From contig JADGGV010000002.1 in the NCBI GenBank assembly GCA_019689775.1, positions 1-46,973 of the forward strand: a DNA stretch of 46,973 nucleotides. The letters run 5' to 3'. Of the stretch, positions 22,345 to 43,348 are shown in pieces. The position numbers were made by a program, and so were the translations under genes. Positions within the stretch are counted from its first letter, which is position 1; each line of letters opens with the position of its first letter. The stretch is from Gemmatimonadota bacterium (lineage in GTDB: Bacteria; Gemmatimonadota; Gemmatimonadetes; Longimicrobiales; RSA9). The notes below the pieces were generated by a model. That model saw only the letters and a program-made list of their open reading frames with translations. It did no database searches and was not told the DNA's origin.

Positions 22345-22571
22345 GGTAAGGGCGTCCCGGCGGGTGCGCAAGCCGACCGGCCGGTTGCCCGCCCCCCATG
22401 TGCGGCCCATTCTTCCCGCGCGCCGCGGGGCGGGAGCGCGGCGCGTGGCAGCCGCGACCGCGATGGGCGCCCCACCCCCGTCCGAGACCGGCACCGGCCC
22501 GGGGGACCGCCGCCGATCCCGCGGGCCCGCATGGATGGCGAGGCGGCAGAACGTTGGACGGTTCATCGATC

Positions 22572-25124
22572 GTGTCGAGGCTGCGGAAGGTGGCGGGCCC
22601 GCTCGCCGGGCTGGTCGTCTTTCTCGTCGCGGTGTGGGTGCTGCACTCCGCGCTGCGGCGCTACCACTACCGCGACATCGTCCATGCGCTCCATGCGCTG
22701 CCGGACGCGCGCATCCTCCTCGCGCTCCTGCTGACGGCGGCCAACTACCTCGTGCTTACCGGGTACGACGCGCTCGGGCTGCGCTACATCCGCAAGCCGC
22801 TGGCGTACCCCCGCATCGCGTTCGCCTCCTTCATCGCCTACGCGTTCAGCCACAATCTCGGCTTCCCGCTGCTGACGGGCGCGCCGCTGCGCTTCCGCCT
22901 GTACTCGGCGTGGGGCCTCTCCGCCGTCGAGGTGACGAACGTCATCGCGTTCAACAGCCTGACGTTCTTCCTCGGCCTGTTCACGGTCGGCGGCCTCGTC
23001 TTCGCGCTCTCGCCGCTCGAGATCCCGCACGTCCTGCACGTCCCGTTCGCCTCCGTGCGCCCCGTCGGCGCGATCTTCCTCGCGATCGCGGCGCTGTACC
23101 TGTTCTGGGGGCGGCTCGAGCGCCAGCCGCTCCGCATCCGCGGCTGGGAGTTCGCGTTCCCCACCACGCGCCTCTCGCTGCTCCAGATGCTCGTCTCGGC
23201 CACCGATTGGGCGCTGGCGGGCGGCATCTTCTGGGCGGTCCTCCCACCCTCGGCGCATGTCTCGTACTCCGGTGCGCTGACCATCTACCTGCTCGCCCAG
23301 ACGGCCGGGCTGGTCACGAACATCCCCGGCGGGCTCGGCGTCTTCGAGGCCGTCGTGCTCGTGCTCCTCGAGGAGCGGGCGCCGCCGGACGCGATCCTCG
23401 GCTCGCTGCTGGCGTATCGCGGCATCTACTACCTGCTCCCGCTCGTCACCGCGTCGGTGCTGCTCGCCGGGCACGAGGCGCGGCAGCGGACGGAGGACGT
23501 GCGGCGCGTGGCGCGCGTCGTCGGTCGCTGGGCGCCCGTCGTCGCCCCGCAGCTCCTGGCGTTCACGACGTTCCTCGCCGGCGCCATCCTGCTCTTCTCC
23601 GGGGCGACGCCGGCGATCCACTCGCGCCTGCGCTTCCTGAACGACTTCCTCCCGCTCGGGGTCATCGAGGCCTCGCATTTCCTGGCCAGCCTCGCCGGCG
23701 CCGGGCTCCTCCTCCTGGCGCGCGGCATCCAGCGGCGCATCGACGCCGCGTTCGGCCTGACCGTCGCGCTGCTGCTCGCCGGGATCGCGCTCTCGCTCCT
23801 CAAGGGCGCCGACTACGAGGAGGCGATCGCGCTCGGCGTGATGCTCCTCGCGCTCCTCCCCGCGCGCCGCTACTTCTACCGCCGCGCCTCGCTCACCGGC
23901 GAGCCGTTCACGATCGGCTGGATCGTCGCCATCGCGATCGTGCTCGCCGGCTCGATCTGGCTCGGCTTCTTCTCCTACAAGCACGTCGAGTACTCGAGCG
24001 AGCTGTTCTGGCGCTTCGCGCTCCGCGGCGATGCGCCGCGGTTCCTGCGCGCCTCCGTCGGCGCGGTCGGGCTGGTCATGCTGGTCGCCGCGTCGCGCCT
24101 GCTGCGGCCAGCGCCGCCGGAGCCGACGCTGGCGACGCCGGCGGAGCTGGCGCGCGCGAGAGAGATCATCGCGCGCTCGCCCGACACGAGCGCGAACCTC
24201 GCGCTGCTCGGCGACAAGGCGCTCCTCTTCAGCGAGAGCGGGCGCGCGTTCATCATGTACGCGGTCGAGGGCCGCACCTGGGTCGCGCTCGGCGACCCGG
24301 TCGGCCCGGAGGAGGAGTGGCCCGAGCTGATCTGGCGCTTCCGCGAGCTGGTCGATCGGCACGGCGGCTGGACGGTCTTCTACCAGGTCAAGACGGCCGG
24401 GCTCCCGCTCTTCCTCGACCTCGGGCTGACCCTGCTCAAGCTCGGCGAGGAGGCGCGCGTGCCGCTCGCGGACTTCTCCCTCGAGGGCGGGGCGCGGAAG
24501 GGGATGCGCCGCGTGCACCACCGACTGGCCAAGGAGGGGTGCACCTTCGCCATCGTGCCGGTCGAGGAGGTGCCGGCGCTGCTCCCCGAGCTGCGCCGGA
24601 TCTCCGACGCCTGGCTGGCCGCGAAGCGGACCCGCGAGAAGGGCTTCTCGCTCGGCGCGTTCGACGAGCGCTACATCGCGAACTTCCCGGTCGCCGTCGT
24701 GCGCTGCGGCGGGCGCATCGTCGCGTTCGCGAACCTCTGGCTCGGCGCGGACCGCGAGGAGCTGTCCGTCGACATCATGCGCTACGCCGCGGACGCGCCC
24801 GAGGACGTGATGGAGTACCTCTTCATCGAGCTGATGCTCTGGGGGAAAGCGCAGGGATACCGCTGGTTCAGCCTGGGGATGGCGCCGCTGTCCGGGCTCG
24901 AGAACCGCACCCTGGCGCCGCTCTGGAACCGGCTCGGCGCGCTCGTCTTCCGCTACGGCGAGAACTTCTACTCCTTCCAGGGCCTGCGGCAGTACAAGGA
25001 GAAGTTCGCGCCGGTGTGGGAGCCGAAGTACCTCGCCTCGCCCGGCGGGCTCAACCTGCCGCGGATCCTGACCAGCGTGGCCGCGCTCATCTCCGGCGGC
25101 CTCAAGGGCGTCGTCAGCCGCTAG
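22572..25124 (+). CDS. mprF: bifunctional lysyl-phosphatidylglycerol flippase/synthetase MprF-like
   Basis: About 500 aa of polytopic N-terminal domain, plus a C-terminal aminoacyl-PG synthase domain (EKGFSLGAF, FRYGENFYSFQGLRQYKEKF). The GTG start at 22572 is tentative. Confidence 0.87.
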   Translation: MSRLRKVAGPLAGLVVFLVAVWVLHSALRRYHYRDIVHALHALPDARILLALLLTAANYLVLTGYDALGLRYIRKPLAYPRIAFASFIAYAFSHNLGFPLLTGAPLRFRLYSAWGLSAVEVTNVIAFNSLTFFLGLFTVGGLVFALSPLEIPHVLHVPFASVRPVGAIFLAIAALYLFWGRLERQPLRIRGWEFAFPTTRLSLLQMLVSATDWALAGGIFWAVLPPSAHVSYSGALTIYLLAQTAGLVTNIPGGLGVFEAVVLVLLEERAPPDAILGSLLAYRGIYYLLPLVTASVLLAGHEARQRTEDVRRVARVVGRWAPVVAPQLLAFTTFLAGAILLFSGATPAIHSRLRFLNDFLPLGVIEASHFLASLAGAGLLLLARGIQRRIDAAFGLTVALLLAGIALSLLKGADYEEAIALGVMLLALLPARRYFYRRASLTGEPFTIGWIVAIAIVLAGSIWLGFFSYKHVEYSSELFWRFALRGDAPRFLRASVGAVGLVMLVAASRLLRPAPPEPTLATPAELARAREIIARSPDTSANLALLGDKALLFSESGRAFIMYAVEGRTWVALGDPVGPEEEWPELIWRFRELVDRHGGWTVFYQVKTAGLPLFLDLGLTLLKLGEEARVPLADFSLEGGARKGMRRVHHRLAKEGCTFAIVPVEEVPALLPELRRISDAWLAAKRTREKGFSLGAFDERYIANFPVAVVRCGGRIVAFANLWLGADREELSVDIMRYAADAPEDVMEYLFIELMLWGKAQGYRWFSLGMAPLSGLENRTLAPLWNRLGALVFRYGENFYSFQGLRQYKEKFAPVWEPKYLASPGGLNLPRILTSVAALISGGLKGVVSR

Positions 25125-29982: not shown

Positions 29983-32172
29983 GTGCGAATGGAGCCGAAA
30001 GAGGGGGCCGCGCACGCGGAGGCACCGCCCCGCGGCGACGACCAGAGGCATGCGATAGACGCGCGGGAACGGGAGACGGCAGGCTCGCCGGCCGTGGACC
30101 GCGCGCGGCTCCTCGCGCTGGAGGAGTCCCGCGCACGCGCGGAGGCGGCGCACCGCGAGATCGTCGCCGTGCTGGATCGCATCACGGACGGCTTCTTCGC
30201 GCTCGACCGCGACTGGCGCGTCACGTACGCGAACCGGCGCGCCGAGGAGCTGCTCGCGCTGGCGCCGGGGACCTTGCTCGGGCAACACCTCTGGACGCGC
30301 TTCCCGGACTCGTACGACTCCGTCTTCGGTCGCGAGTACCGGCGCGCGATGGCGGACATGGCGCCGGCGAACTTCGAGGCGCGCTCGGTGGTCGTGGACC
30401 GCTGGTTCTCCGTCCACGCCTACCCCTCGCCCGAGGGGCTGTCCGTCTACTTCCAGGACGTGACCGAGAAGCGCCGCGCCGAAGAGGCGTTGCGCGAGAG
30501 CGAACGCCGGTACCGCTCGCTCTTCCACGACGCGCGCGACGCCATCTACATCACGTCCAGCTCCGGCCGGTTCCTGGACGTGAACGCGTCGATGGAGGCG
30601 CTCGTCGGCTACAGCCGGGCGGAGCTGCTCCAGATGAGCGCGGTCTCGCTCTACGCCCGGCCGGCGGACCTGGAGCGCTTCCGCCGGGAAATCGAGGCCC
30701 ACGGCAGCGTGCACGGCTTCGAGGTGCGGCTGCGGCGCAGCGACGGCAGCGAGATCGACTGCCTGCTCAACTCGGTCGTGCGCCTGGACGCCGACGGCCG
30801 CGTGGCCGGCTACCAGGGGATCATCCACGACATCACGGACCGGAAGCGCGCCGAGGAGAGCCTCCGCCGCGACGCGCTGCACGACCCGCTGACCGGGCTG
30901 CCGAACCGCGCGCTGTTCATGCGCCGCCTCGAGCGGGCGCTGGAGCGGGCGGCGCGCGACCCGGCGTACCACTTCGCGGTCCTGTTCCTGGACCTCGACC
31001 GCTTCAAGGTGATCAACGACTCGCTCGGCCACCTGGCGGGCGACGAGCTGCTCGTCGGGGTGGCGCGCCGGCTGGAGGCGTCCGTCCGCCCGGGCGACAC
31101 CGTGGCGCGGCTCGGCGGGGACGAGTTCGCGATCCTCCTGTTCGAGATCGAGGAGGTGGAGGACGCGGATCGGATCGCGGAGCGGATCCACGAGCGGTTG
31201 AAGGAACCGCACGCGCTGGCAGGACAGACGGTCTTCACGACGGCGAGCGTCGGGGTGGCGCTCGGCTCCGCCGAGTACGAGCGCCCGGAGGAGCTGTTGC
31301 GGGATGCCGACACGGCCATGTACCGCGCCAAGCAGCTCGGCGGCGTGCAGCACCAGGTCTTCGACCACACGATGCACGCCGAAGCGATGGCGCTCCTGCG
31401 CCTCGAGACGGACCTGCGCCGCGCCGTCGAGGAGGAGGAATTCGACGTCTTCTACCAGCCGATCGTCTCGCTGGACACCGGCGCGCTCGTCGGACTGGAG
31501 GCGCTGGCGCGCTGGCGCCACCCGACGCGCGGCCTGGTGATGCCGGCGGAGTTCATCCCCCTTGCCGAGGAGACGGGGCTGATCGTGCCGCTGGGCCGCT
31601 GGGTGCTCGACGCCGCGTGCCGGCGCATGGCCGACTGGCGGGCGCGCTACCCGCAGGCGCGCACGCTCACGCTCAGCGTCAACGTCGCGGCCAAGCAGCT
31701 CGCGCAGCGGGATCTCGTCGAGCACATCGAGGAGCTGGTCCGGACGCTCGGCCTCGCCGGCATCCTGCGCCTGGAGATGACCGAGAGCGCGCTCGTGGCG
31801 AACCCCGAGGGCGCCATCGCCGCGTTCCGGCGCCTGCGGCAGGCCGGCGTCGAGCTGTGCATCGACGACTTCGGCACCGGCTACTCCTCGCTCAGCCACC
31901 TGCACCGGTTCCCGGTCGACATGCTGAAGATCGACCGGTCCTTCGTGGAGCGCCTCGGGCGCGACGAGTCGAACCGCCAGATCGTCGGCGCCATCGTGGC
32001 GCTGGCCGGCGCGCTCGGCATCGAGGCGATCGCCGAGGGCGTGGAGACGCCGCAGCAGCGCGACGAGCTCCGCGCCCTCGGCTCCCGCACCGCCCAGGGG
32101 TTCCTCTTCTCGCCACCGCTGGCCGCCACGGCGTTGGAGGCGCTCCTCCGCGAGTCGCGCCCGACCGCCTAG
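29983..32172 (+). CDS. PAS/PAS-GGDEF-EAL signalling protein (diguanylate cyclase/phosphodiesterase)
   Basis: Two PAS-like segments. Intact GGDEF (RLGGDEFAILL). EAL-domain motifs (EALARWRHP, EMTES, DDFGTGYSSL). Start is GTG 29983 or ATG 29989. Confidence 0.92.
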   Translation: MRMEPKEGAAHAEAPPRGDDQRHAIDARERETAGSPAVDRARLLALEESRARAEAAHREIVAVLDRITDGFFALDRDWRVTYANRRAEELLALAPGTLLGQHLWTRFPDSYDSVFGREYRRAMADMAPANFEARSVVVDRWFSVHAYPSPEGLSVYFQDVTEKRRAEEALRESERRYRSLFHDARDAIYITSSSGRFLDVNASMEALVGYSRAELLQMSAVSLYARPADLERFRREIEAHGSVHGFEVRLRRSDGSEIDCLLNSVVRLDADGRVAGYQGIIHDITDRKRAEESLRRDALHDPLTGLPNRALFMRRLERALERAARDPAYHFAVLFLDLDRFKVINDSLGHLAGDELLVGVARRLEASVRPGDTVARLGGDEFAILLFEIEEVEDADRIAERIHERLKEPHALAGQTVFTTASVGVALGSAEYERPEELLRDADTAMYRAKQLGGVQHQVFDHTMHAEAMALLRLETDLRRAVEEEEFDVFYQPIVSLDTGALVGLEALARWRHPTRGLVMPAEFIPLAEETGLIVPLGRWVLDAACRRMADWRARYPQARTLTLSVNVAAKQLAQRDLVEHIEELVRTLGLAGILRLEMTESALVANPEGAIAAFRRLRQAGVELCIDDFGTGYSSLSHLHRFPVDMLKIDRSFVERLGRDESNRQIVGAIVALAGALGIEAIAEGVETPQQRDELRALGSRTAQGFLFSPPLAATALEALLRESRPTA

Positions 32173-32319: not shown

Positions 32320-33165
32320 ATGGCCGCTGACCGGCTACGATCGAGGATCCTGCGCGTGGCGCGGGAGGCGGGGGCGGCCGCCGTCGCCGTCGCATACCAC
32401 GACTGGGAGACGCGGACCGAGTGGAGCCTGCACGGCGACGTCTGGTTCCACGCCGCCAGCACGATCAAGCTCGCGGTCATGCTGGGCGTCTACGGCGTCA
32501 TCGCCGACGGGGCGCTCAGCACGGACTCGCGCGTGCACGTGCGGAATCGGTTCCGCAGCGTCGCGGACGGCGAGCCGTTCCGCGTGGAGGCGAGCCGGGA
32601 CGCGAACTCCGACGTCCAGGCGGCGATCGGCCGGACCATGAGGGTCGAGGATCTGGCCCGCCACATGATCGTCACGAGCAGCAATCTTGCAACGAACTTG
32701 CTGCTCGATCTGGTCGGGGTGGAGGAGGTCCAGGCGAAGCTCGCCTCGCTGAGCCTGCACGGCGTGCGGTTGGAGCGCGGCGTCGAGGACGAGCGCGCCT
32801 TCGAGCGGGGGATCAACAACCGCGTCACCGCGAAGGGGCTGCTCGAGGTGCTCCGGGTGCTTCAGGAGCGCCGGGCGTTCTCGGTGGAGCTCTCCGAGCA
32901 GATGCTCGAGATCCTGCACGGTCAGGAGTTCAACGCGGGGATCCCCGCGGGGCTGCCGGCCGGCGCCCGCGTCGCGCACAAGACGGGCGAGATCTCGACC
33001 GTCGCGCACGACGCGGGGCTGGTCTACCTCCAGGGCCGTGACCCCTACGCGCTCGTCGTCCTGACGGAGTGGCCCGCCGACGTGTACGGCGCGCGCAACG
33101 AGACGATCGCCGGGATCTCGCGGCTCGTCTACGAGCACCTCTGCACCGAGGGCGACGATGCCTGA
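32320..33165 (+). CDS. class-A beta-lactamase-fold serine hydrolase, no signal peptide
   Basis: SxxK (ASTIK), SxN (SSN) and KTG (HKTGE) motifs in the correct order and spacing. The N-terminus aligns directly with mature class A enzymes, and the upstream ORF extension has no hydrophobic leader. Confidence 0.85.
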   Translation: MAADRLRSRILRVAREAGAAAVAVAYHDWETRTEWSLHGDVWFHAASTIKLAVMLGVYGVIADGALSTDSRVHVRNRFRSVADGEPFRVEASRDANSDVQAAIGRTMRVEDLARHMIVTSSNLATNLLLDLVGVEEVQAKLASLSLHGVRLERGVEDERAFERGINNRVTAKGLLEVLRVLQERRAFSVELSEQMLEILHGQEFNAGIPAGLPAGARVAHKTGEISTVAHDAGLVYLQGRDPYALVVLTEWPADVYGARNETIAGISRLVYEHLCTEGDDA

Positions 33166-33820
33166 GGCCGGCGGCGTGCCGCTGCGGCTGGTCGATGGCC
33201 TCGAGCTGCCCCCGGAGTACCGGGACGTGCTGCGCCCCGGCGAGCTGGTCGCGGATCGCAGCGGCCGGCTACGCCGCTTGCCGCGGTTCTTCTACGCGGT
33301 CGAGTCGTGGCGGCAGGCGCGCGACGTGCGGCTGGCGCCGCACTTCGTGCTCGCGGAGTTCCTGGACGTCGACGTGCGCGAGGCGGAGCCGCTGCGCCGC
33401 TTCCCGCGCTACGTCCCCTGCGCGATCACGCTGCTCGCCACGCACCTCGAGATGCTGCGCCAGGCGGTGGGCACCTTCGTCTTCATCTCGGCGAACGGCG
33501 GCTACCGCTCCCCGTCGCACCGACTCCTCCGCTACGCGACGCCGCACTGCTGGGGCACTGCGGCGGACCTGTACCGGATCGGAGACACGTACCTGCACGA
33601 CCGCGAGATGATCGAGAAGTACGGTCGCCTGGCGGTGGAAGTGAGCCCGGCGTTCCACACGCTGCCGTTCGGTCATGGCGTCGGCGAGGTGGACGACCAC
33701 GTGCACCTGGATCTGGGGTTCGTCGTCCAGGTGCCGGAGGATGCGCCGTCGGAGGCGGACGCGGAGCAGCGAGACACTCCCGGCGAGCCCCTCGGCGGAC
33801 CCGGAGGCGGCGTGGAATGA
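33158..33820 (+). CDS. M15-family (LAS fold, Peptidase_M15_3/DUF882-like) zinc peptidase, no signal peptide
   Basis: Motifs HFVLAEF, GGYRSPSH, HCWGTAAD (H-x6-D) and HVHLD (HxH). The ATG overlaps the upstream stop by 8 nt (ATGCCTGA), and GAGGG precedes it. Confidence 0.8.
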   Translation: MPEAGGVPLRLVDGLELPPEYRDVLRPGELVADRSGRLRRLPRFFYAVESWRQARDVRLAPHFVLAEFLDVDVREAEPLRRFPRYVPCAITLLATHLEMLRQAVGTFVFISANGGYRSPSHRLLRYATPHCWGTAADLYRIGDTYLHDREMIEKYGRLAVEVSPAFHTLPFGHGVGEVDDHVHLDLGFVVQVPEDAPSEADAEQRDTPGEPLGGPGGGVE

Positions 33821-35046
33821 GCTCGACGGAGAAGCAGCGCGGGAAATGGGCGGCGACGCCGGCGGCCCCGGAGCGGTTGCAGCTCGCGGCCATGGGGCTG
33901 GAATCCGAGTTCGGGTTACTGGTCGACGACCGGCCGACGCGGCCCGAGGCGGTCTTCGAGGACCCGCGCTCCTTCATCCGGGGCGAGCTGATGCACCGCA
34001 TCGGTACGTCGTACCACGTCCCGACCGGCGGCGCGGTCTACTTCGACACGGGCGTGATCGAGGTGGCCACACCGGTGATCGAGATCGAGCGCGGCGCGCC
34101 CGCGCGGGCCGTCCGCTCGCTGTGGGAGTCGATCCGCTTCGTGCGCGAGGAGCTCGACGACTGGGAGCGCCGGGCCGGGCGGCGGGCGCGGCTGACCGGC
34201 TTCAGCGCGCACTACAACGTCTCGTTCGAGCGCTCGGGCGGGCGCCCGCGCGCCCGCCGCTCCATCGAGCGGCTCGCCCTTCTGCTCTCCTACATCCTGC
34301 CCGTGCCGGTCCTGCTCCTGGCCGCCAACCGGCGGTCGACCGGCGTCGGCGTGCGGCCGCGCGGCGACCGCATCGAGGTGACCGTCGACTTCACGCCGAG
34401 CCCGGCGCTCATGGTCGCCACCGCGACGATCATCGTCGGCATCGTGCGCGCGATCATGCGCTGGCCATCCTACGACCTCCACGTGCTGGACCGGACGGAC
34501 CTGCCGGTGCTCGCGGCGTTCGCGCCGGTCCGCCACACCACCCGCCACGGGTGGCTCGCGCGCTACAGTTGCTTCGCGGCCAACCCCTTCGCCTGCGACA
34601 TCGATGCGCCCCTCTGGCGCACGCGCGACGGGCGCCGCCTCAGCCTCCGCACCATCGCCGGACTGACGGCGCGCCATTTCTGGCGCGAGATCCGCCGCAT
34701 CTCCGACCCGTTCACGTTCCGGCTGATCGGCTCCGTGCTCCACGGCCGCGCCCCCTCGCTCCTCGAGCTGCCGGACCGCCCGCCGGAGTACGAGGACGTG
34801 GGCCACCTCGTCAGTTGGGACGACCTCTTCACCGAGCGGCAGCTCAGCCGCTCGCGCTACGAGCGCGTGATCGTGCGCGCCATCCAGGGGCGACGCCTCT
34901 TCCTCAACGGCGAGACGCTGACGCCGACCGGGATGCGCGGCTGGTCGCAGGTCGTCTTCCGCCGCGAACGCGACGCCGCGTGCATCGTGCTCCCGATCGA
35001 CTTCCTGGTCGAGCACCTGCCGAACTGGGAGCGCACGCCCCGCTAG
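33817..35046 (+). CDS. divergent carboxylate-amine ligase-like protein (GCS2/YbdK or amidoligase, glutamine-synthetase fold) with long unique C-terminal region
   Basis: Ordered motifs GLESEFGLLV, DTGVIEVATP, FSAHYNVSF and VRPRGDRIEVTVDF resemble YbdK TLGIELEM / ESMLELAT / HVHVG / IRPSPHFGTVEVRVMD (recalled from memory). The ATG overlaps the upstream TGA (ATGA), with GGAGG 9 nt upstream. Coding status is confident; the function is not. Confidence 0.65.
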   Translation: MSSTEKQRGKWAATPAAPERLQLAAMGLESEFGLLVDDRPTRPEAVFEDPRSFIRGELMHRIGTSYHVPTGGAVYFDTGVIEVATPVIEIERGAPARAVRSLWESIRFVREELDDWERRAGRRARLTGFSAHYNVSFERSGGRPRARRSIERLALLLSYILPVPVLLLAANRRSTGVGVRPRGDRIEVTVDFTPSPALMVATATIIVGIVRAIMRWPSYDLHVLDRTDLPVLAAFAPVRHTTRHGWLARYSCFAANPFACDIDAPLWRTRDGRRLSLRTIAGLTARHFWREIRRISDPFTFRLIGSVLHGRAPSLLELPDRPPEYEDVGHLVSWDDLFTERQLSRSRYERVIVRAIQGRRLFLNGETLTPTGMRGWSQVVFRRERDAACIVLPIDFLVEHLPNWERTPR

Positions 35047-35108
35047 CGGGTACTGAAACCCCGTGCGCGGCACCGGCGTACGGTCCGGCAACCAGGAGGA
35101 GGGATCCC

Positions 35109-35387
35109 ATGATCGGTCTCATCGTCGCCATCGGCGCACTCGGTGCCGCGATCGCCGGCCATCTCGGCGCCCGCGACTTCGTCCGCCGCCGCCTCCGCTT
35201 CGTGGATGCCGTGCAGCGCGCCCGGGCGCCGTGGATCGCGGGCGCCGGCGCGGTGCTCGCCGCGGCGCCCGTCGTCTGGCTGCTCCCCTTCTTCGGCGCC
35301 GGCACGGCGATCGTGTTCGGCGTCGGCGTCGGCTCCGGCGTGGCTGCGGGCGCACGCGACATCCGCCGCCTGCCGGGCGGCGGCTGA
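35109..35387 (+). CDS. small membrane protein (92 aa, 2-3 TM, hypothetical)
   Basis: ATG preceded by AGGAGGAGGG. Hydrophobic Gly/Ala-rich segments (MIGLIVAIGALGAAIAG, VVWLLPFFGAGTAIVFGVGVG). Confidence 0.55.
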   Translation: MIGLIVAIGALGAAIAGHLGARDFVRRRLRFVDAVQRARAPWIAGAGAVLAAAPVVWLLPFFGAGTAIVFGVGVGSGVAAGARDIRRLPGGG

Positions 35388-37919: not shown

Positions 37920-38690
37920 CTACCGCTTGACGAGCAGCTCCTCGAACAGCGCCAGCGCGCGCGGGTCGCCGCTCTGGCCGAGCCAGACCAGCGCCTGGCG
38001 GCGCAGCCGCGGATCGCCGTTCCGCCGGGCGATCTCGATCAGCGCGGGCACGCCCTCGTCGCGCGGCCGCTGCGACAGCGCGAAGATCGCCTGCTTGCGG
38101 ATCTCCACGTCGACGTCGTCGTCGCGGGCCAGCTCGTCGAGGCCGCGCGTGGCGGCGGCCGCGGCTTCCTGCCCGAGCCAGAACGTGGCCTGCTTGCGCA
38201 CCGCCTGTGGCCGCGACGCGTCGCGCGCGATCGCCAGCAGGTCGGGCCAGACCGTCACGCTGTCCGCCAGCGTCGCCGCGAAGATCGCCCGCCGGGCGAC
38301 GACGTCGTCGGAGCGCGCCAGCGAGAGCAGATAGCCGGCCGCGTCCGCCGCCCGCACGCTCCCCAGGTCCGTCACGCCGGCGCCGCCCGGGCGCCAGTGG
38401 CCGCCGACGTACGTCCGCATGGCGGCGACCCGGTGGTCCCGCACGTCCAGCGCGATCCGCGCCGGCCCCTCCTCGCAGTCGCTCTCCCACTCCGAGGAGC
38501 GACCGCTCCACCGGCTGATGCCGTTCTCGCCGTTGCCGCAGATGCCCGGCCGCGTCGCGAAGCTGAACCGGACCGTGCCGTCGGGGGCCGCGGCCACCCG
38601 GGACGCCAGCGACTGGGCCGTCGCCGCCGGTGCGCCGGCCAGCAGGGCGGCAGCAACGAGCGACGAGGCGCGGGGAATACGCGTGCTCAT
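37920..38690 (-). CDS. secreted HEAT-repeat protein (256 aa)
   Basis: Signal peptide MSTRIPRASSLVAAALLAGAPAATAQS. C-terminal repeats RKQATFWLGQ, RKQAIFALSQ and RRQALVWLGQSGDPRA. The ATG overlaps the upstream stop (ATGA). Confidence 0.8.
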   Translation of the reverse strand: MSTRIPRASSLVAAALLAGAPAATAQSLASRVAAAPDGTVRFSFATRPGICGNGENGISRWSGRSSEWESDCEEGPARIALDVRDHRVAAMRTYVGGHWRPGGAGVTDLGSVRAADAAGYLLSLARSDDVVARRAIFAATLADSVTVWPDLLAIARDASRPQAVRKQATFWLGQEAAAAATRGLDELARDDDVDVEIRKQAIFALSQRPRDEGVPALIEIARRNGDPRLRRQALVWLGQSGDPRALALFEELLVKR

Positions 38691-40339
38691 CGGTTGATGA
38701 TCTCCTGGAGCACCTCTACGGCGCGCGGGTCCTTGGACTGCGACAGCCAGAAGATCGCCCGCTTGCGCAGCTCCACGTCCTTCTCGTGGCGGGCGATGTC
38801 GATCAGCTTGTCGACGAACGCCGGGTCGCGGCGCTGCGAGTAGGCGAAGATGAGCTGCTCCTTGATCTCGCGGTCGCCGCTGCGGTCGTAGAGCGCGACC
38901 AGGTCCGCGGCCGGCGCGCCGCCCTGCGCCGCCCAGAACAGCGCCTTCTTGCGGATCTCGATCGGCTGGTCGCTCCCCATGGCGACGTCCATCAGCCATC
39001 GGCCGTTCATCTCCCGTCCCATCTGCGAGAGCGAGAACAGGATCCGCTCCTTCAGCTCGGCGTCCCGCGTGCGGGTGAAGAGGTCGCGCAGGAACTGCGC
39101 GTTCTGCGGCGAGCGGCTCTGGCCGATCCAGAACACGGCCTTCGCGCGCAGCTCGGGCGAGGCGGCGTCCGAGAGGGCGTAGGCGCGCAGCGCGTTCGCG
39201 GCCTTCGCGCCGCGGTGCTGCGATAGCGCGAAGAGCGCCTTCTCCTTGACCTCCGCGTCCGTCGCCGTGCGCAGCACGTCCTGTAGCGCGTCCACGGCCT
39301 CGTCGCCCTGCACCTGCGACAGCCAGAAGACCGCCTGGCCGCGCACCTCCGGGTCCGGATCCTCGCGCGCCGCCTTCAGCAGGATCGCGGCCGTCTCCGG
39401 CGTGCGCTTCTGCGAGACCAGGAACACCGCGCGCCGGCGCAGCGTGGCCGAGCACGCGTCGCGGCGCGCCAGCACCTGCCGCAGGATCGGCATCGCCTGC
39501 TCCGTCCCCATCTGTAGCAGCGCGTTCAGCGCCGCCACGCGCATGTCGTTCTCATCGTCCTCGGTCGGGCACCCCTGCTGCGGCGCCCGCGTCACGGCGT
39601 CGGCGCGCCGGGCCACGCGCCGCGCGGCCTGCTCGTCGCCGCGCCGCGCCAGCTCGCCGTTGATTCGCGTCGCCAGCGTCTCGGCGTCGCCGCGCGTGCT
39701 CGCCTGGGGGTAGCGCGTCCCCTGCACCTCGAGCGCGGCGAGCGCGGCGCGCAGCTCGCCGGAGCCGCCGCTGCGGTACAGCGCGAACGCCTGCCAGTAG
39801 AGCGCGTCCGCCGCGTACGCGGAGCGCGGGTAGCGCGACGCGACCTCCGCGAACAACTGCGCCGCCCGCCGGTAGTCGCCGTCGTTGAGCGCCTGCCGCG
39901 CGCTCCGATAGAGCGAGTCGGCGGGATCGCCCTGGCGCCACGGCGGCGGCGGAACCGTCGCCATTCGCCGCCCGCCGCCCCACACCGCCGCGGCCGCCGC
40001 CGCCCGGGCCGCCGGCGCCGCGGCGGCCGCATCGGCGAGTTGCGCGCCGGCTCGGGCGGCCTCGGCCGCCGCCGCGTCCAGTGCCGGCACCGCGGCCAGC
40101 GCCACGCCCGCGGCCTCGGCCGCCGCCCCGTGCACCGCCGGCGTCGCGGCCAGCACCGCGCGCGCGGCCTGCGCCTCGGCCAGCGCCGTCTGCACCACCG
40201 CGGCGGCCTCGCTCGCACCCGTGGCGGCCGCGGCGCGAGCCATGGACGCGCCGCCAACCGGCCTCTGCGCCCACCGGGCCGCGTCCGCCGTGGAGGCCCC
40301 CAGCGCCACCGCCAGGATGACCAGGATCTGCGTGCGCAT
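38687..40339 (-). CDS. secreted TPR-like + HEAT-repeat protein (550 aa)
   Basis: Signal peptide MRTQILVILAVALGASTADA and an Ala-rich linker. YbgF/BamD-like TPR segment (YRSARQALNDGDYRRAAQLF...YAADALYWQA). At least 8 repeats of [RK]xxA[IVL]F[WAS]L[SG]Q. The ATG at 40339 follows GGAG. Confidence 0.8.
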   Translation of the reverse strand: MRTQILVILAVALGASTADAARWAQRPVGGASMARAAAATGASEAAAVVQTALAEAQAARAVLAATPAVHGAAAEAAGVALAAVPALDAAAAEAARAGAQLADAAAAAPAARAAAAAAVWGGGRRMATVPPPPWRQGDPADSLYRSARQALNDGDYRRAAQLFAEVASRYPRSAYAADALYWQAFALYRSGGSGELRAALAALEVQGTRYPQASTRGDAETLATRINGELARRGDEQAARRVARRADAVTRAPQQGCPTEDDENDMRVAALNALLQMGTEQAMPILRQVLARRDACSATLRRRAVFLVSQKRTPETAAILLKAAREDPDPEVRGQAVFWLSQVQGDEAVDALQDVLRTATDAEVKEKALFALSQHRGAKAANALRAYALSDAASPELRAKAVFWIGQSRSPQNAQFLRDLFTRTRDAELKERILFSLSQMGREMNGRWLMDVAMGSDQPIEIRKKALFWAAQGGAPAADLVALYDRSGDREIKEQLIFAYSQRRDPAFVDKLIDIARHEKDVELRKRAIFWLSQSKDPRAVEVLQEIINR

Positions 40340-40350
40340 GATCGTCTCCT

Positions 40351-41253
40351 TCAAGTTCCTGCGGACACCGGGCCGGCGGGCACCACCGCCCGGAGCCTCG
40401 GCAGGACGTCGTGTTGTTTGAGTGCGTGCTCGATCAGCTCCACGTCCTCCGCGCGCGCACCGCCGGCCCGGAGCTGGACGATCTGGGCGAGGACCAGCTC
40501 GAGGTCCTCGAGGAGCCCCCGGATCTTCGGGTCGCTGGCCGCCGGCGAATCCAGCAGGAGGCGCGTGCTCGACAGGACGTCACGGGCCCAGGCGGCGAGC
40601 TGCGGGTCCACCTCCGCCTGTCGCCGCGCCTCCGACCGGAACGACGTGAGCAGCAGCTCGGCCTGGTTCAGCGTCTGGACGGCGGCGAAGCGGTACAGGG
40701 TTAGGTTCCGCCCGTCCTCCGCCGGCTCGCCAGGAGCGGCGGGCCCCGGCCGCTCGGCTGGCTCCGCGCTGGCGCCGTCCGGCGCCGCGTGCGCCGGGCT
40801 CGCCGTCCTCCCCCGCCCTGCCGGCGACCCGGACCGCGCGACCTCGCCTGCGGTCGTCGCACTCCTCGGCGCGGCGCCGCCCGCCTCCACCCCGCCCGCC
40901 GGGCCGGTCGCCGCCGGACCCGCCGCCGGAGCGCGGCCGCCGGCCGGCGCCTCCGCGACCCGGGTTCCCGCGGGCCGCTCCAGCCGGGTCAGCCGGCCGA
41001 GCGCGACGCCGAGCGCCAGCATCGCCGCGAGCGGCAGCCCCCGGAGCGTCCACCAGCGGGCGCCGCGCGGCGGTCGAGTCGGCCGGGAGTCGACGCGGAG
41101 CGACGGCGCTGTCGCGGCGTCGTCGCCCTGTGCCGTGTGGGCCTGGGCCGCGCGGATCCGCTCCCATATGGCGTCCCGCGGCGTCGCCGGCGGCGGATGG
41201 TAGAGTTCCCGCGCCGCGCTCCGGAGGAAGTCCTCGAACCGATCCTCGCTCAT
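40351..41253 (-). CDS. anti-sigma factor (single-pass, non-zinc type)
   Basis: Its ATG overlaps the ECF sigma stop (ATGA). Short cytoplasmic N-terminus, a TM helix (LRGLPLAAMLALGVALG), a Pro/Ala/Gly-rich linker and a helical C-terminal domain. Confidence 0.7.
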   Translation of the reverse strand: MSEDRFEDFLRSAARELYHPPPATPRDAIWERIRAAQAHTAQGDDAATAPSLRVDSRPTRPPRGARWWTLRGLPLAAMLALGVALGRLTRLERPAGTRVAEAPAGGRAPAAGPAATGPAGGVEAGGAAPRSATTAGEVARSGSPAGRGRTASPAHAAPDGASAEPAERPGPAAPGEPAEDGRNLTLYRFAAVQTLNQAELLLTSFRSEARRQAEVDPQLAAWARDVLSSTRLLLDSPAASDPKIRGLLEDLELVLAQIVQLRAGGARAEDVELIEHALKQHDVLPRLRAVVPAGPVSAGT

Positions 41254-41792
41254 GTCGCCCATTCTCCCGCAAAGTCGGCCAGCTTCTCGCGCAACGCCGC
41301 GCGCGCCCGGAACAGCCGCGCCTTCGACGTGCCTTCCGGGATGTCCAGCACCTGGCCGATCTCCTCGTGCGTGAAGCCCTCCACGTCGTGCATCACGAAG
41401 ACGAGCCGATGGTGCTCCGCGAGCCCGTCGACCGCTCGCCTCAGCCGGTCCTTCAGGTCTGGCTCCGCCGCGCCCGGCACGACGCCGACGCCGGCGGCAT
41501 CGTCCAGGTCCGTCTCGCGCTCCCGCAGCCGCTTCACCTTCCGCAGGCCGTTCAGGATGACCGACACCGCCACCGTGTGCAGCCACGTCGAGAAGGCCGA
41601 GTCCCCGCGGAACTCCTTCAGTCGGGCGAACGCGCGGATGAAGGTGTCCTGGGTGAAGTCCTGAGCCAGGTCCTCGTCCCCGCTCATCCGGTAGGCGAGC
41701 CGGTAGACGCGGTCGACGTGCGCGTCGTACAGCGCGCGCTGCGCCTGATCGTCTCCGCCGACCGCTCGAGCGATCAACTGCCGTTCGTCCAC
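41250..41792 (-). CDS. ECF (group 4) RNA polymerase sigma factor
   Basis: Region 2 (DRVYRLAYRMSGDEDLAQDFTQDTFIRAF) and region 4 HTH (FTHEEIGQVLDIPEGTSKARLFRAR). GTG start. Confidence 0.93.
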   Translation of the reverse strand: MDERQLIARAVGGDDQAQRALYDAHVDRVYRLAYRMSGDEDLAQDFTQDTFIRAFARLKEFRGDSAFSTWLHTVAVSVILNGLRKVKRLRERETDLDDAAGVGVVPGAAEPDLKDRLRRAVDGLAEHHRLVFVMHDVEGFTHEEIGQVLDIPEGTSKARLFRARAALREKLADFAGEWAT

Positions 41793-43265: not shown

Positions 43266-43348
43266 CGGAGGGCCGGGGATTCGAACCCCGATGGGCTTGC
43301 GCCCGGCGGTTTTCAAGACCGCTGCCTTACCGTTAGGACTAGCCCTCC
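43266..43348 (-). tRNA. tRNA-Ser (anticodon UGA), type II with long variable arm, no encoded CCA
   Basis: 7-bp acceptor GGAGGGC/GCCCTCC. Anticodon stem GCGGT/ACCGC with loop CUUGAAA. Variable arm GGGC-GCAA-GCCC. T arm CGGGG-TTCGAAT-CCCCG. Discriminator G. Confidence 0.9.

Follow-up and report, generated by a model that had tools for sequence, protein, structure and literature searches.

What might a bacterium do with a beta-lactamase-fold hydrolase, a cell-wall peptidase fold and an ATP-dependent ligase that are encoded in one chain of overlapping genes and are all predicted to stay in the cytoplasm? The question is posed by three genes, here called g1, g2 and g3, on contig JADGGV010000002.1 of a Gemmatimonadota bacterium of the Longimicrobiales (assembly GCA_019689775.1). 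The whole stretch analysed, positions 1 to 46,973 of that contig, is referred to below as the window. Our main finding is that the three genes constitute a self-contained, translationally coupled and co-inherited operon, which is real, widespread and undescribed; it is of a kind already known, that of amidoligase-peptidase operons and of cytoplasmic D-peptide processing, and it introduces no categorically new principle. As to what the operon does, the reading that we favour, while stopping short of calling it probable, is that its substrate is a peptide in which D-amino acids and a gamma-linked glutamate occur, the likeliest being a peptidoglycan stem peptide that is imported into, or released in, the cytoplasm.

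Conservation and inheritance of the three genes

An earlier note on this DNA, written from its letters alone, had described three open reading frames (ORFs) chained by start-stop overlaps, with a fourth, g4, a short distance downstream, and this anatomy is exactly as it was claimed to be (Table 1). Codon-position GC content places g1 and g2, the two genes scored, in coding frames (third-position GC 0.91-0.92, in a window of about 73% GC), and the frame of g3 stays open upstream of g3. A scan of one genome per species yielded 506 stretches that encode a relative of g3, and loci were analysed for the best 80 of these 506. The order g1-g2-g3 is kept in about 77 of the 80, wherever the contig is long enough, at 52-68% identity, and the trio is retained in more divergent copies as well (44-49% identity). 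The overlap between g1 and g2 persists in 69 of 77 loci, usually in the same 8-nt form; at the g2/g3 junction the genes overlap in 39 of the 77, and either overlap or are separated by at most 30 nt in 57. That the overlaps have been retained suggests a constant ratio of synthesis for the three proteins, which possibly form a complex.

The hosts are mostly Gemmatimonadota (Longimicrobiales and Gemmatimonadales), and include Ramlibacter, Blastocatellia and other Acidobacteriota, and a Bacteroidota metagenome-assembled genome (MAG). The closest public locus (L001) comes from a Longimicrobiales MAG, the proteins of this region being 86-90% identical between the two. The trio is carried by five Ramlibacter genomes, of which two come from cultured strains, and for all three genes the nearest relatives lie in one small set of Longimicrobiales loci, at 72-76% identity, a closer match than is seen between clades of Gemmatimonadota. 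Because each Ramlibacter gene is closest to these same loci at this level, we conclude that the cassette was transferred horizontally as one block. Outside the Gemmatimonadota there are no conserved flanking genes around the trio, and the plasmid and phage collections that were searched hold no copy of it. That g1, g2 and g3 are three unrelated neighbours with incidental overlaps is effectively refuted: short overlaps are frequent in high-GC genomes, but here the order is maintained across phyla while the flanks vary, the junction overlaps are themselves conserved, and all three genes have been transferred together. On these same grounds, the earlier view of the cassette as a single unit is upheld.

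No family model or characterised pathway covers the trio, and literature searches on the combination returned no description of it, in agreement with the earlier impression that it belongs to no characterised pathway. PADLOC gives no match for any of g1 to g4 at E<=1, and in RefSeq the proteins of the Ramlibacter trio are named "serine hydrolase", "hypothetical" and "hypothetical"; the three of Ramlibacter alkalitolerans have the accessions WP_201687384, WP_201687385 and WP_201687386.

There is no N-terminal hydrophobic segment in g1, from either of its possible starts, or in g2; the open frames upstream of the starts contribute no signal-like sequence, and the homologues share the same start position. 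The two hydrophobic stretches of g3 are, in its AlphaFold2 model, helices packed on the beta-sheet. Lacking export signals, the three proteins are predicted to be cytoplasmic, and the claim that g1 and g2 have neither signal peptide nor transmembrane segment is borne out. The accompanying premise, that M15 and LAS enzymes normally act in the periplasm or on the cell wall, was drawn too narrowly. VanX and DdpX are cytoplasmic M15 enzymes. A leaderless precedent from a "periplasmic-type" family is ElsL of Acinetobacter, which belongs to a normally secreted family of cell-wall enzymes and serves as a cytoplasmic LD-carboxypeptidase of recycling (PMC8649774).

Table 1. Coordinates of the operon, its junctions and its neighbours in the window
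Feature	Positions	Strand	Description
g1	32320-33165	+	281 aa; leaderless serine hydrolase, predicted class A beta-lactamase / PBP-A fold
g2	33158-33820	+	220 aa; leaderless, divergent, predicted M15A/LAS-fold metallopeptidase-like protein
g3	33817-35046	+	409 aa; Dop/PafA-like ATP-dependent carboxylate-amine ligase homologue of glutamine synthetase (GS) fold; family without existing model
g1/g2 start-stop overlap	33158-33165	+	ATGCCTGA; g2 start over g1 stop
g2/g3 start-stop overlap	33817-33820	+	ATGA; g3 start over g2 stop
g4	35109-35387	+	92-aa protein with two transmembrane segments, 62 nt after g3; lineage-specific neighbour
PAS-PAS-GGDEF-EAL protein	29983-32172	+	signalling protein; ends 147 nt before g1
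MprF-like protein	22398-25124		lysyl-phosphatidylglycerol synthase (LPG_synthase_C and transmembrane domains), about 7 kb upstream
HEAT-repeat proteins	37920-40354	-	two adjoining genes, downstream of cydAB
Sigma factor	41250-41792		extracytoplasmic function (ECF) type
tRNA gene	43266-43348	-	sole tRNA gene in the window

Folds and active sites of the encoded proteins

The first protein is the most readily placed. It matches Beta-lactamase2 of Pfam (PF13354) over the whole model, at 158.3 bits against a cut-off of 22 bits (E=2.2e-46), and scores 104 bits, about half of the 200-bit cut-off, with the NCBIfam model for class A beta-lactamases (NF033103, bla_class_A). Its closest solved structures are 4hes and 4ewf, two "class A-like" proteins from structural genomics, and Tll2115 of Thermosynechococcus (2j7v), the DD-peptidase PBP-A. 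Across 77 related loci there is no variation in the motifs S47-T-I-K50, S120-S-N122, E156 and K221-T-G223, E156 being equated with Glu166 by alignment position alone; STIK, SSN and KTG had been correctly picked out before. Because these catalytic motifs do not vary, g1 is predicted to be a catalytically intact serine hydrolase and no relic. It shares the fold and all four catalytic motifs with PBP-A and the class A beta-lactamases, and differs from them in being leaderless, in falling far below curated beta-lactamase cut-offs, and in being always coupled to g2 and g3. We rejected g1 as a bona fide class A beta-lactamase, on its NF033103 score and on the lack of a signal peptide with either start, and likewise a role in beta-lactam resistance, on the predicted cytoplasmic location and the same shortfall in score.

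The second protein belongs to a family of more than 2700 clusters for which neither Pfam nor NCBIfam has a model. The window copy matches nothing in either database, and Peptidase_M15_3 (PF08291) is absent from its matches even at E<=10; that model is the sole Pfam family seen among its homologues, 15 of 26 of which match it weakly (best E 0.007). A PHROG endolysin family, phrog_894, is matched by g2 at E=1.4e-5. When the AlphaFold2 model of g2 (predicted local distance difference test, pLDDT, 80) was compared with BFVD, the viral structure library and the only one to yield significant M15A matches, it retrieved phage M15 and M15A peptidases at E 6e-5 to 1e-2, with probability 1.0 and a root-mean-square deviation of 3.5-4.4 A over about 135 columns. 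g2 is thus predicted to have the M15A/LAS fold, but it misses the score thresholds of the family and its metal site is atypical.

That site is where the earlier description holds in part. The residues reported as a zinc triad in the window copy are there, as H130-x6-D137 and H181-x-H183, together with D180 as the acid ahead of the last His, but the pattern does not describe the family, in which position 137 (codon 33566-33568 of the window) is Asn in 112 of 121 homologues and Asp in the remaining nine, the window copy included. H130, D180, H183 and D185 never vary across the 121, and H121 and R117 vary little or not at all. With the phage and bacterial M15A peptidases (Peptidase_M15_3) and the LAS peptidases MepA, LdcB and VanY, g2 has in common the core of the fold and the conserved motifs GGYRSPxH (more generally GGYRSxxH), HxWGxAx(D/N) and DHxHxD. 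It is unlike them in scoring below Pfam thresholds, in lacking a leader, in carrying a conserved stretch of about 55 residues N-terminal to the peptidase core, and in having, in most members, Asn in place of the zinc-ligand Asp.

The third protein is matched by no entry in Pfam, NCBIfam, PADLOC or the PDB sequences, and Pup_ligase (PF03136), GCS2 (PF04107) and Amidoligase_2 (PF12224) remain unmatched at E<=1; a profile built from 26 homologues likewise found nothing in the PDB. A PHROG match to a tail tube protein, at E 0.25, is at chance level and was discarded. The AlphaFold2 model of g3 (pLDDT 81.6, predicted template modelling score 0.82) places it nonetheless. The Foldseek search of the PDB ranks Dop and PafA first (E 3.6e-9, TM-score about 0.5, over the whole length), followed by YbdK of the GCS2 family (E 7e-5) and then by glutamine synthetases, and its significant matches are all of these kinds. 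For the carboxylate-amine ligase superfamily, Iyer et al. (2008; PMC2588565) list GhExE on strand 1, acidic residues on strands 2 and 3, [HQD]x[NH] on strand 4, arginines both on strand 5 and in the loop that leads into it, and a polar or acidic motif on strand 6. In g3, the first of these is G27-L/M-E29-x-E31, invariant in 26 diverse homologues and located on the first strand of the model; D77 and E82 supply the acidic residues, H132-Y-N134 the [HQ]x[NH] motif, R173 and R180/R182 the arginines, and E187...D191 the acidic motif of the last strand, all of them invariant and on predicted strands. The spacing on strand 6 is Ex3D, as against Ex[RK]x2D. The ligase motifs that had been attributed to g3 are thus genuine superfamily motifs, and the protein is predicted to have an intact ATP- and carboxylate-activating site.

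More than 4390 clusters at about 65% identity make up the family of g3 homologues, every one of them named "hypothetical", and mean column identity in the alignment of 26 diverse members is 76%. When 1.84 billion representative proteins were searched with a profile, 471 clusters were returned, mostly fragments and all of the g3 family, with no bridge to PafA/Dop, GCS2 or any other named family. Because the search recovered only this family and reached no other, we regard g3 as a compact, separate clade of the GS-fold carboxylate-amine ligase superfamily, of which Dop and PafA are the nearest structural relatives. Alignment of the g3 profile by hhalign with a provisional PafA sequence is of low probability and confined to the N-terminus, a lead and no proof; in it, the stretch linking strands beta1 and beta2 is as long as that of PafA, apart from gaps of 1-3 residues. 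The Dop-loop is a Dop-specific segment of 40-65 conserved residues before strand beta2 (PMC8599861). Since g3 has no insert of that size there, it is tentatively more ligase-like than Dop-like.

Two peculiarities of g3 homologues may be recorded here. After a conserved DWER and a variable spacer of 3-4 residues, 78 of 120 homologues end in Gly-Gly, and 66 of the 120 in Arg-Gly-Gly, a C-terminus that would resemble ubiquitin or mimic D-Ala-D-Ala on an enzyme; the tail is missing in the window copy (...ERTPR, 35020-35046), in its closest relative, and in the only Ramlibacter copy translated (L039, ...WERP). In three homologues of 517-574 aa (P0243, P0244 and P0251), an insert of about 85-165 residues separates the catalytic domain from the last 65 or so residues. 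Two others, P0254 and P0357, were considered as fusion proteins and rejected, as they look like frameshift artefacts of the trio.

Could g3 then be a protein-tagging or de-tagging enzyme in the manner of PafA and Dop, attaching or removing a peptide or amino-acid tag that g1 and g2 process? Dop and PafA are its closest solved structures, its N-terminal motifs align with PafA, and the Gly-Gly and Arg-Gly-Gly tails of so many homologues are ubiquitin-like. With PafA/Dop (PF03136) it shares the GS-fold beta-sheet cradle, equivalents of GhExE, the acidic residues of strands 2 and 3, [HQ]x[NH] and the active-site arginines. Yet it is some 60-90 residues shorter, matches no model of that family and is not bridged to it by profile search, seems to have no Dop-loop, and is partnered with two peptidases; the window copy itself does not carry the tail. 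Neither the window nor the annotated loci contain proteasome genes. In genuine systems Pup invariably adjoins the gene for PafA (PMC2588565), whereas no Pup-like small ORF lies within or beside the trio, the junctions of which are overlaps or tiny gaps. We therefore hold the tagging explanation to be very improbable, and the trio was rejected as a Pup system for want of a model match, an adjacent Pup gene and proteasome linkage.

A second comparison is with YbdK/GCS2 and the other non-Pup ligase families of the GS fold (Iyer, Burroughs and Aravind, 2008). Here the likeness is one of superfamily chemistry, in which ATP is used to form an acyl-phosphate on a Glu gamma-carboxylate and then an amide; g3 is similar in size to these enzymes, and YbdK is its second-best structural match. 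The resemblance is structural only, as g3 does not match the GCS2 model, and the families described in 2008 are linked to transglutaminase, GATase-like or Aig2 proteins (PMC2588565), whereas the partners of g3 are a beta-lactamase-fold hydrolase and a LAS peptidase.

Genomic context and a possible role in murein-peptide processing

Within the Gemmatimonadota, the commonest neighbour of the trio is a Mur-ligase gene, which we identify as mpl: it scores 447 bits with TIGR01081, against a cut-off of 388.7 bits, and 318 bits with murC, under the murC cut-off. Of the 80 loci, 31 have it adjacent to the trio or not far away; among the Gemmatimonadota loci whose sequence extends 3 kb or more to each side, the figure is 18 of 33. 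In eight loci it is upstream and divergent, at 70-131 nt, and in 23 it is downstream and convergent, at 12-4849 nt, with differing genes in between. The conclusion reached earlier, that the trio does not correspond to muropeptide recycling by Ldc and Mpl, accordingly survives as regards homology of g1, g2 and g3 and is weakened by this linkage.

A peptide importer is the other recurrent neighbour. In 14 loci of the Gemmatimonadaceae, a co-directional permease gene of the Dpp/Opp type (BPD_transp_1) stops some 50 nt short of g1, and in 11 of these, all those with contigs reaching that far, it is preceded by a gene for a family-5 solute-binding protein (SBP_bac_5). The arrangement is exemplified by L054 (1883-9380), which with 13 similar loci reads SBP_bac_5, one BPD_transp_1, g1-g2-g3, DUF1697 and then a convergent mpl. 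An Opp-type transporter imports murein peptides or muropeptides in Escherichia coli (PMC10622912), and a transporter of the Dpp/Opp type imports muropeptides in Agrobacterium (PMC9790009).

Ligases of the g3 type are also found with a LAS peptidase elsewhere. Two divergent relatives of g3 (36% and 43% identity) occur without g1 and g2, and each is followed by the same convergent, leaderless LAS/M74-like peptidase (L081, 6001-9410, and L087, 7001-9164). Because both adjoin the same type of peptidase, we conclude that the pairing of a g3-type ligase with a LAS peptidase recurs independently. The islands in which these pairs lie hold MqsA-like, ParA/CbiA-like and DndB genes, QueC/PTPS/TGT genes of the 7-deazaguanine type, and genes for non-ribosomal peptide synthetases; L081 encodes an NlpC/P60-like protein in addition to its LAS/M74-like peptidase. 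A 42-aa ORF stands directly upstream of the ligase gene in L087.

The known process that comes nearest to this picture is the cytoplasmic recycling of peptidoglycan peptides, which involves LdcA or ElsL, Mpl, MpaA, and uptake through Opp/MppA or YejBEF-YepA. Like the trio, it employs leaderless enzymes of D-peptide families in the cytoplasm; many Gemmatimonadota have mpl in the vicinity of the trio, one clade has a family-5 peptide ABC system upstream of the trio, and the case of ElsL shows that non-orthologous replacement by a member of a "periplasmic-type" family does occur. Unlike the trio, it is not known to include a ligase of the GS fold, and its peptidases, LdcA of family S66, ElsL of the YkuD type and MpaA of family M14, are not homologous to g1, g2 or g3; neither these three families nor the Mur ligases, to which Mpl belongs, appear in the Pfam and NCBIfam scans of g1 to g3. 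Taken together, PBP-A among the relatives of g1, the cell-wall peptidase fold of g2, the mpl and importer neighbours and the ElsL precedent suggest a link to murein. The anatomy drawn in the earlier note was right, and it is this new context that shifts the weight towards murein-peptide metabolism.

Were the operon to act on murein peptides, its substrate would be L-Ala-gamma-D-Glu-mDAP-D-Ala-D-Ala (mDAP, meso-diaminopimelate) and fragments thereof. g1 would act at the D-Ala-D-Ala end, taking it off or cutting there, and g2 might cut an L,D or a D,L bond, for example mDAP-D-Ala or L-Ala-D-Glu. With ATP, g3 would phosphorylate a carboxylate, which in its superfamily is typically the gamma-carboxylate of Glu, and join it to an amine, the obvious candidate being the gamma-D-Glu amide bond; it is less likely that it would run in the reverse, Dop-like direction and break that bond. 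The product would either feed the salvage ligase Mpl or be kept from it.

Several considerations weigh against this account. Every step of it is inferred, and the known route from Ldc to Mpl needs no additional ligase activity, which leaves the role assigned to g3 without precedent. No mpl is present in the window or in any locus outside the Gemmatimonadota, and its linkage could in part be synteny inherited within one phylum. The peptide ABC genes are confined to one clade, where a single permease and no ATPase genes accompany the binding protein. As to g2, the Foldseek search of its model against the PDB gave no significant match, the weak ones being MepA, LdcB and VanY. Since the canonical zinc-ligand Asp is Asn in most of its homologues, the family may bind metal in another, unusual way or not at all, and instead of hydrolysing, g2 possibly serves as a binding subunit. 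The solo ligase-peptidase pairs, lying as they do in defence-like islands, hint at a role beyond housekeeping recycling.

We would go one step further only as a rather doubtful proposal: that the trio is a hitherto unrecognised cytoplasmic pathway, with g3 as a Pup-independent relative of PafA and Dop which forms an amide bond in a peptide of D-amino acids, or runs that reaction backwards, without recourse to a Mur-type or ATP-grasp ligase, for instance a GS-fold enzyme forming the gamma-D-Glu-mDAP bond, so as to rebuild murein peptides out of fragments or edit them before Mpl, with the two hydrolases held in a complex of fixed stoichiometry.

The same ligase could instead serve biosynthesis. 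Other non-Pup families of the GS fold are found in peptidase operons without a Pup-like ORF, and are predicted to have small-peptide substrates and to make glutathione-like peptides or other peptide metabolites, not protein tags (PMC2588565). The trio might similarly build and trim a small non-ribosomal peptide or cofactor that does not derive from peptidoglycan, such as a gamma-glutamyl or D-amino-acid di- or tripeptide, with g3 as the synthetase and g1 and g2 as hydrolases of maturation or turnover; this had been the chief proposal of the earlier note, beside the modification and de-modification of a protein or cell-wall precursor. Every ligase motif is kept in g3, and the trio is self-sufficient in genomes where it has no conserved neighbours, both of which would suit such a pathway. 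Against this, the conserved unit includes no racemases, transporters or tailoring enzymes, two hydrolases to one ligase is an odd ratio for biosynthesis, and the mpl and peptide-importer neighbours point to the salvage of an existing peptide. We consider synthesis of this kind unlikely.

The third functional alternative is that the operon remodels a cytoplasmic precursor of the cell wall, as the Van systems do. In these, VanA is a ligase, VanX a cytoplasmic M15 dipeptidase and VanY a DD-carboxypeptidase, a functional triad that the trio matches, and g1 and g2 both come from families of D-Ala-specific enzymes. The hydrolases would strip the D-Ala-D-Ala end or the dipeptide and the ligase would install or amidate a group on the UDP-MurNAc-peptide, altering chemotype or susceptibility to antibiotics. 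Amidation of a carboxylate is possible for enzymes of the GS fold (PMC2588565). The families themselves differ throughout, however, with a GS-fold in place of an ATP-grasp ligase, M15A in place of M15D/B, and a serine in place of a zinc DD-peptidase. VanH, VanR and VanS were found neither in the window nor in the loci, g1 to g3 and their neighbours include no ATP-grasp D-Ala-D-X ligase or M15D VanX, the plasmid and phage collections searched contain no copy of the trio, and its genomic context is housekeeping. Such remodelling is, in our estimation, quite improbable, and cytoplasmic processing of murein peptides is the reading that we retain.

Wider surroundings and significance

Apart from the operon, the window contains ordinary chromosomal genes, for pyrimidine synthesis, formate-tetrahydrofolate ligase, ccmF, pntAB, an MprF-like protein, glycogen and trehalose enzymes and purH, with cydAB just downstream of the trio. 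The suggestion that the small membrane protein g4 might be part of the cassette did not hold up. It follows g3 in four of the 80 loci (L001, L012, L026 and one more), and cydAB does so in none, and we rejected both as members of the unit since they are not conserved. The hydrophobic segments of g4 begin at residues 1 and 43, and it has no family match in Pfam, NCBIfam, PADLOC or PHROGs. A promoter and terminator scan around the operon gave nothing informative, and Rfam has no RNA element near it, the tRNA gene being the only Rfam match in the window.

The gene for a PAS-PAS-GGDEF-EAL signalling protein that precedes g1 is upstream of the trio in L001 too, and, at 42-55% identity, in five further loci of the Gemmatimonadota, L031, L046, L051, L061 and L073. 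The MprF-like synthase gene is another envelope-modifying one; the related loci showed no counterpart, and their flanks, of at most 6 kb, could not reach that far. Each of the two HEAT-repeat proteins has an N-terminus that is predicted to be signal- or lipoprotein-like, and a gene for an ECF-type sigma factor lies beyond them.

Two of the three proteins of the operon represent large, nameless families for which Pfam and NCBIfam have no model, and g3 forms a new and separate branch of the PafA/Dop/GCS2 superfamily, one that works without Pup and could show the chemistry of the superfamily as it was before, or is beside, protein tagging. If g3 is indeed a Pup-independent enzyme acting on amide bonds in D-amino-acid peptides, the pairing of ligase and LAS peptidase would amount to a new class of peptide-editing module, variants of which have been recruited into defence islands. 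The presence of the operon in cultured strains of Ramlibacter makes the idea directly testable. If, moreover, the link to murein is true, the Gemmatimonadota, an abundant and poorly studied soil phylum, would possess a non-orthologous and more elaborate replacement of the LdcA step, in which an unexpected ATP-dependent ligation has been added to the recycling of the cell wall.

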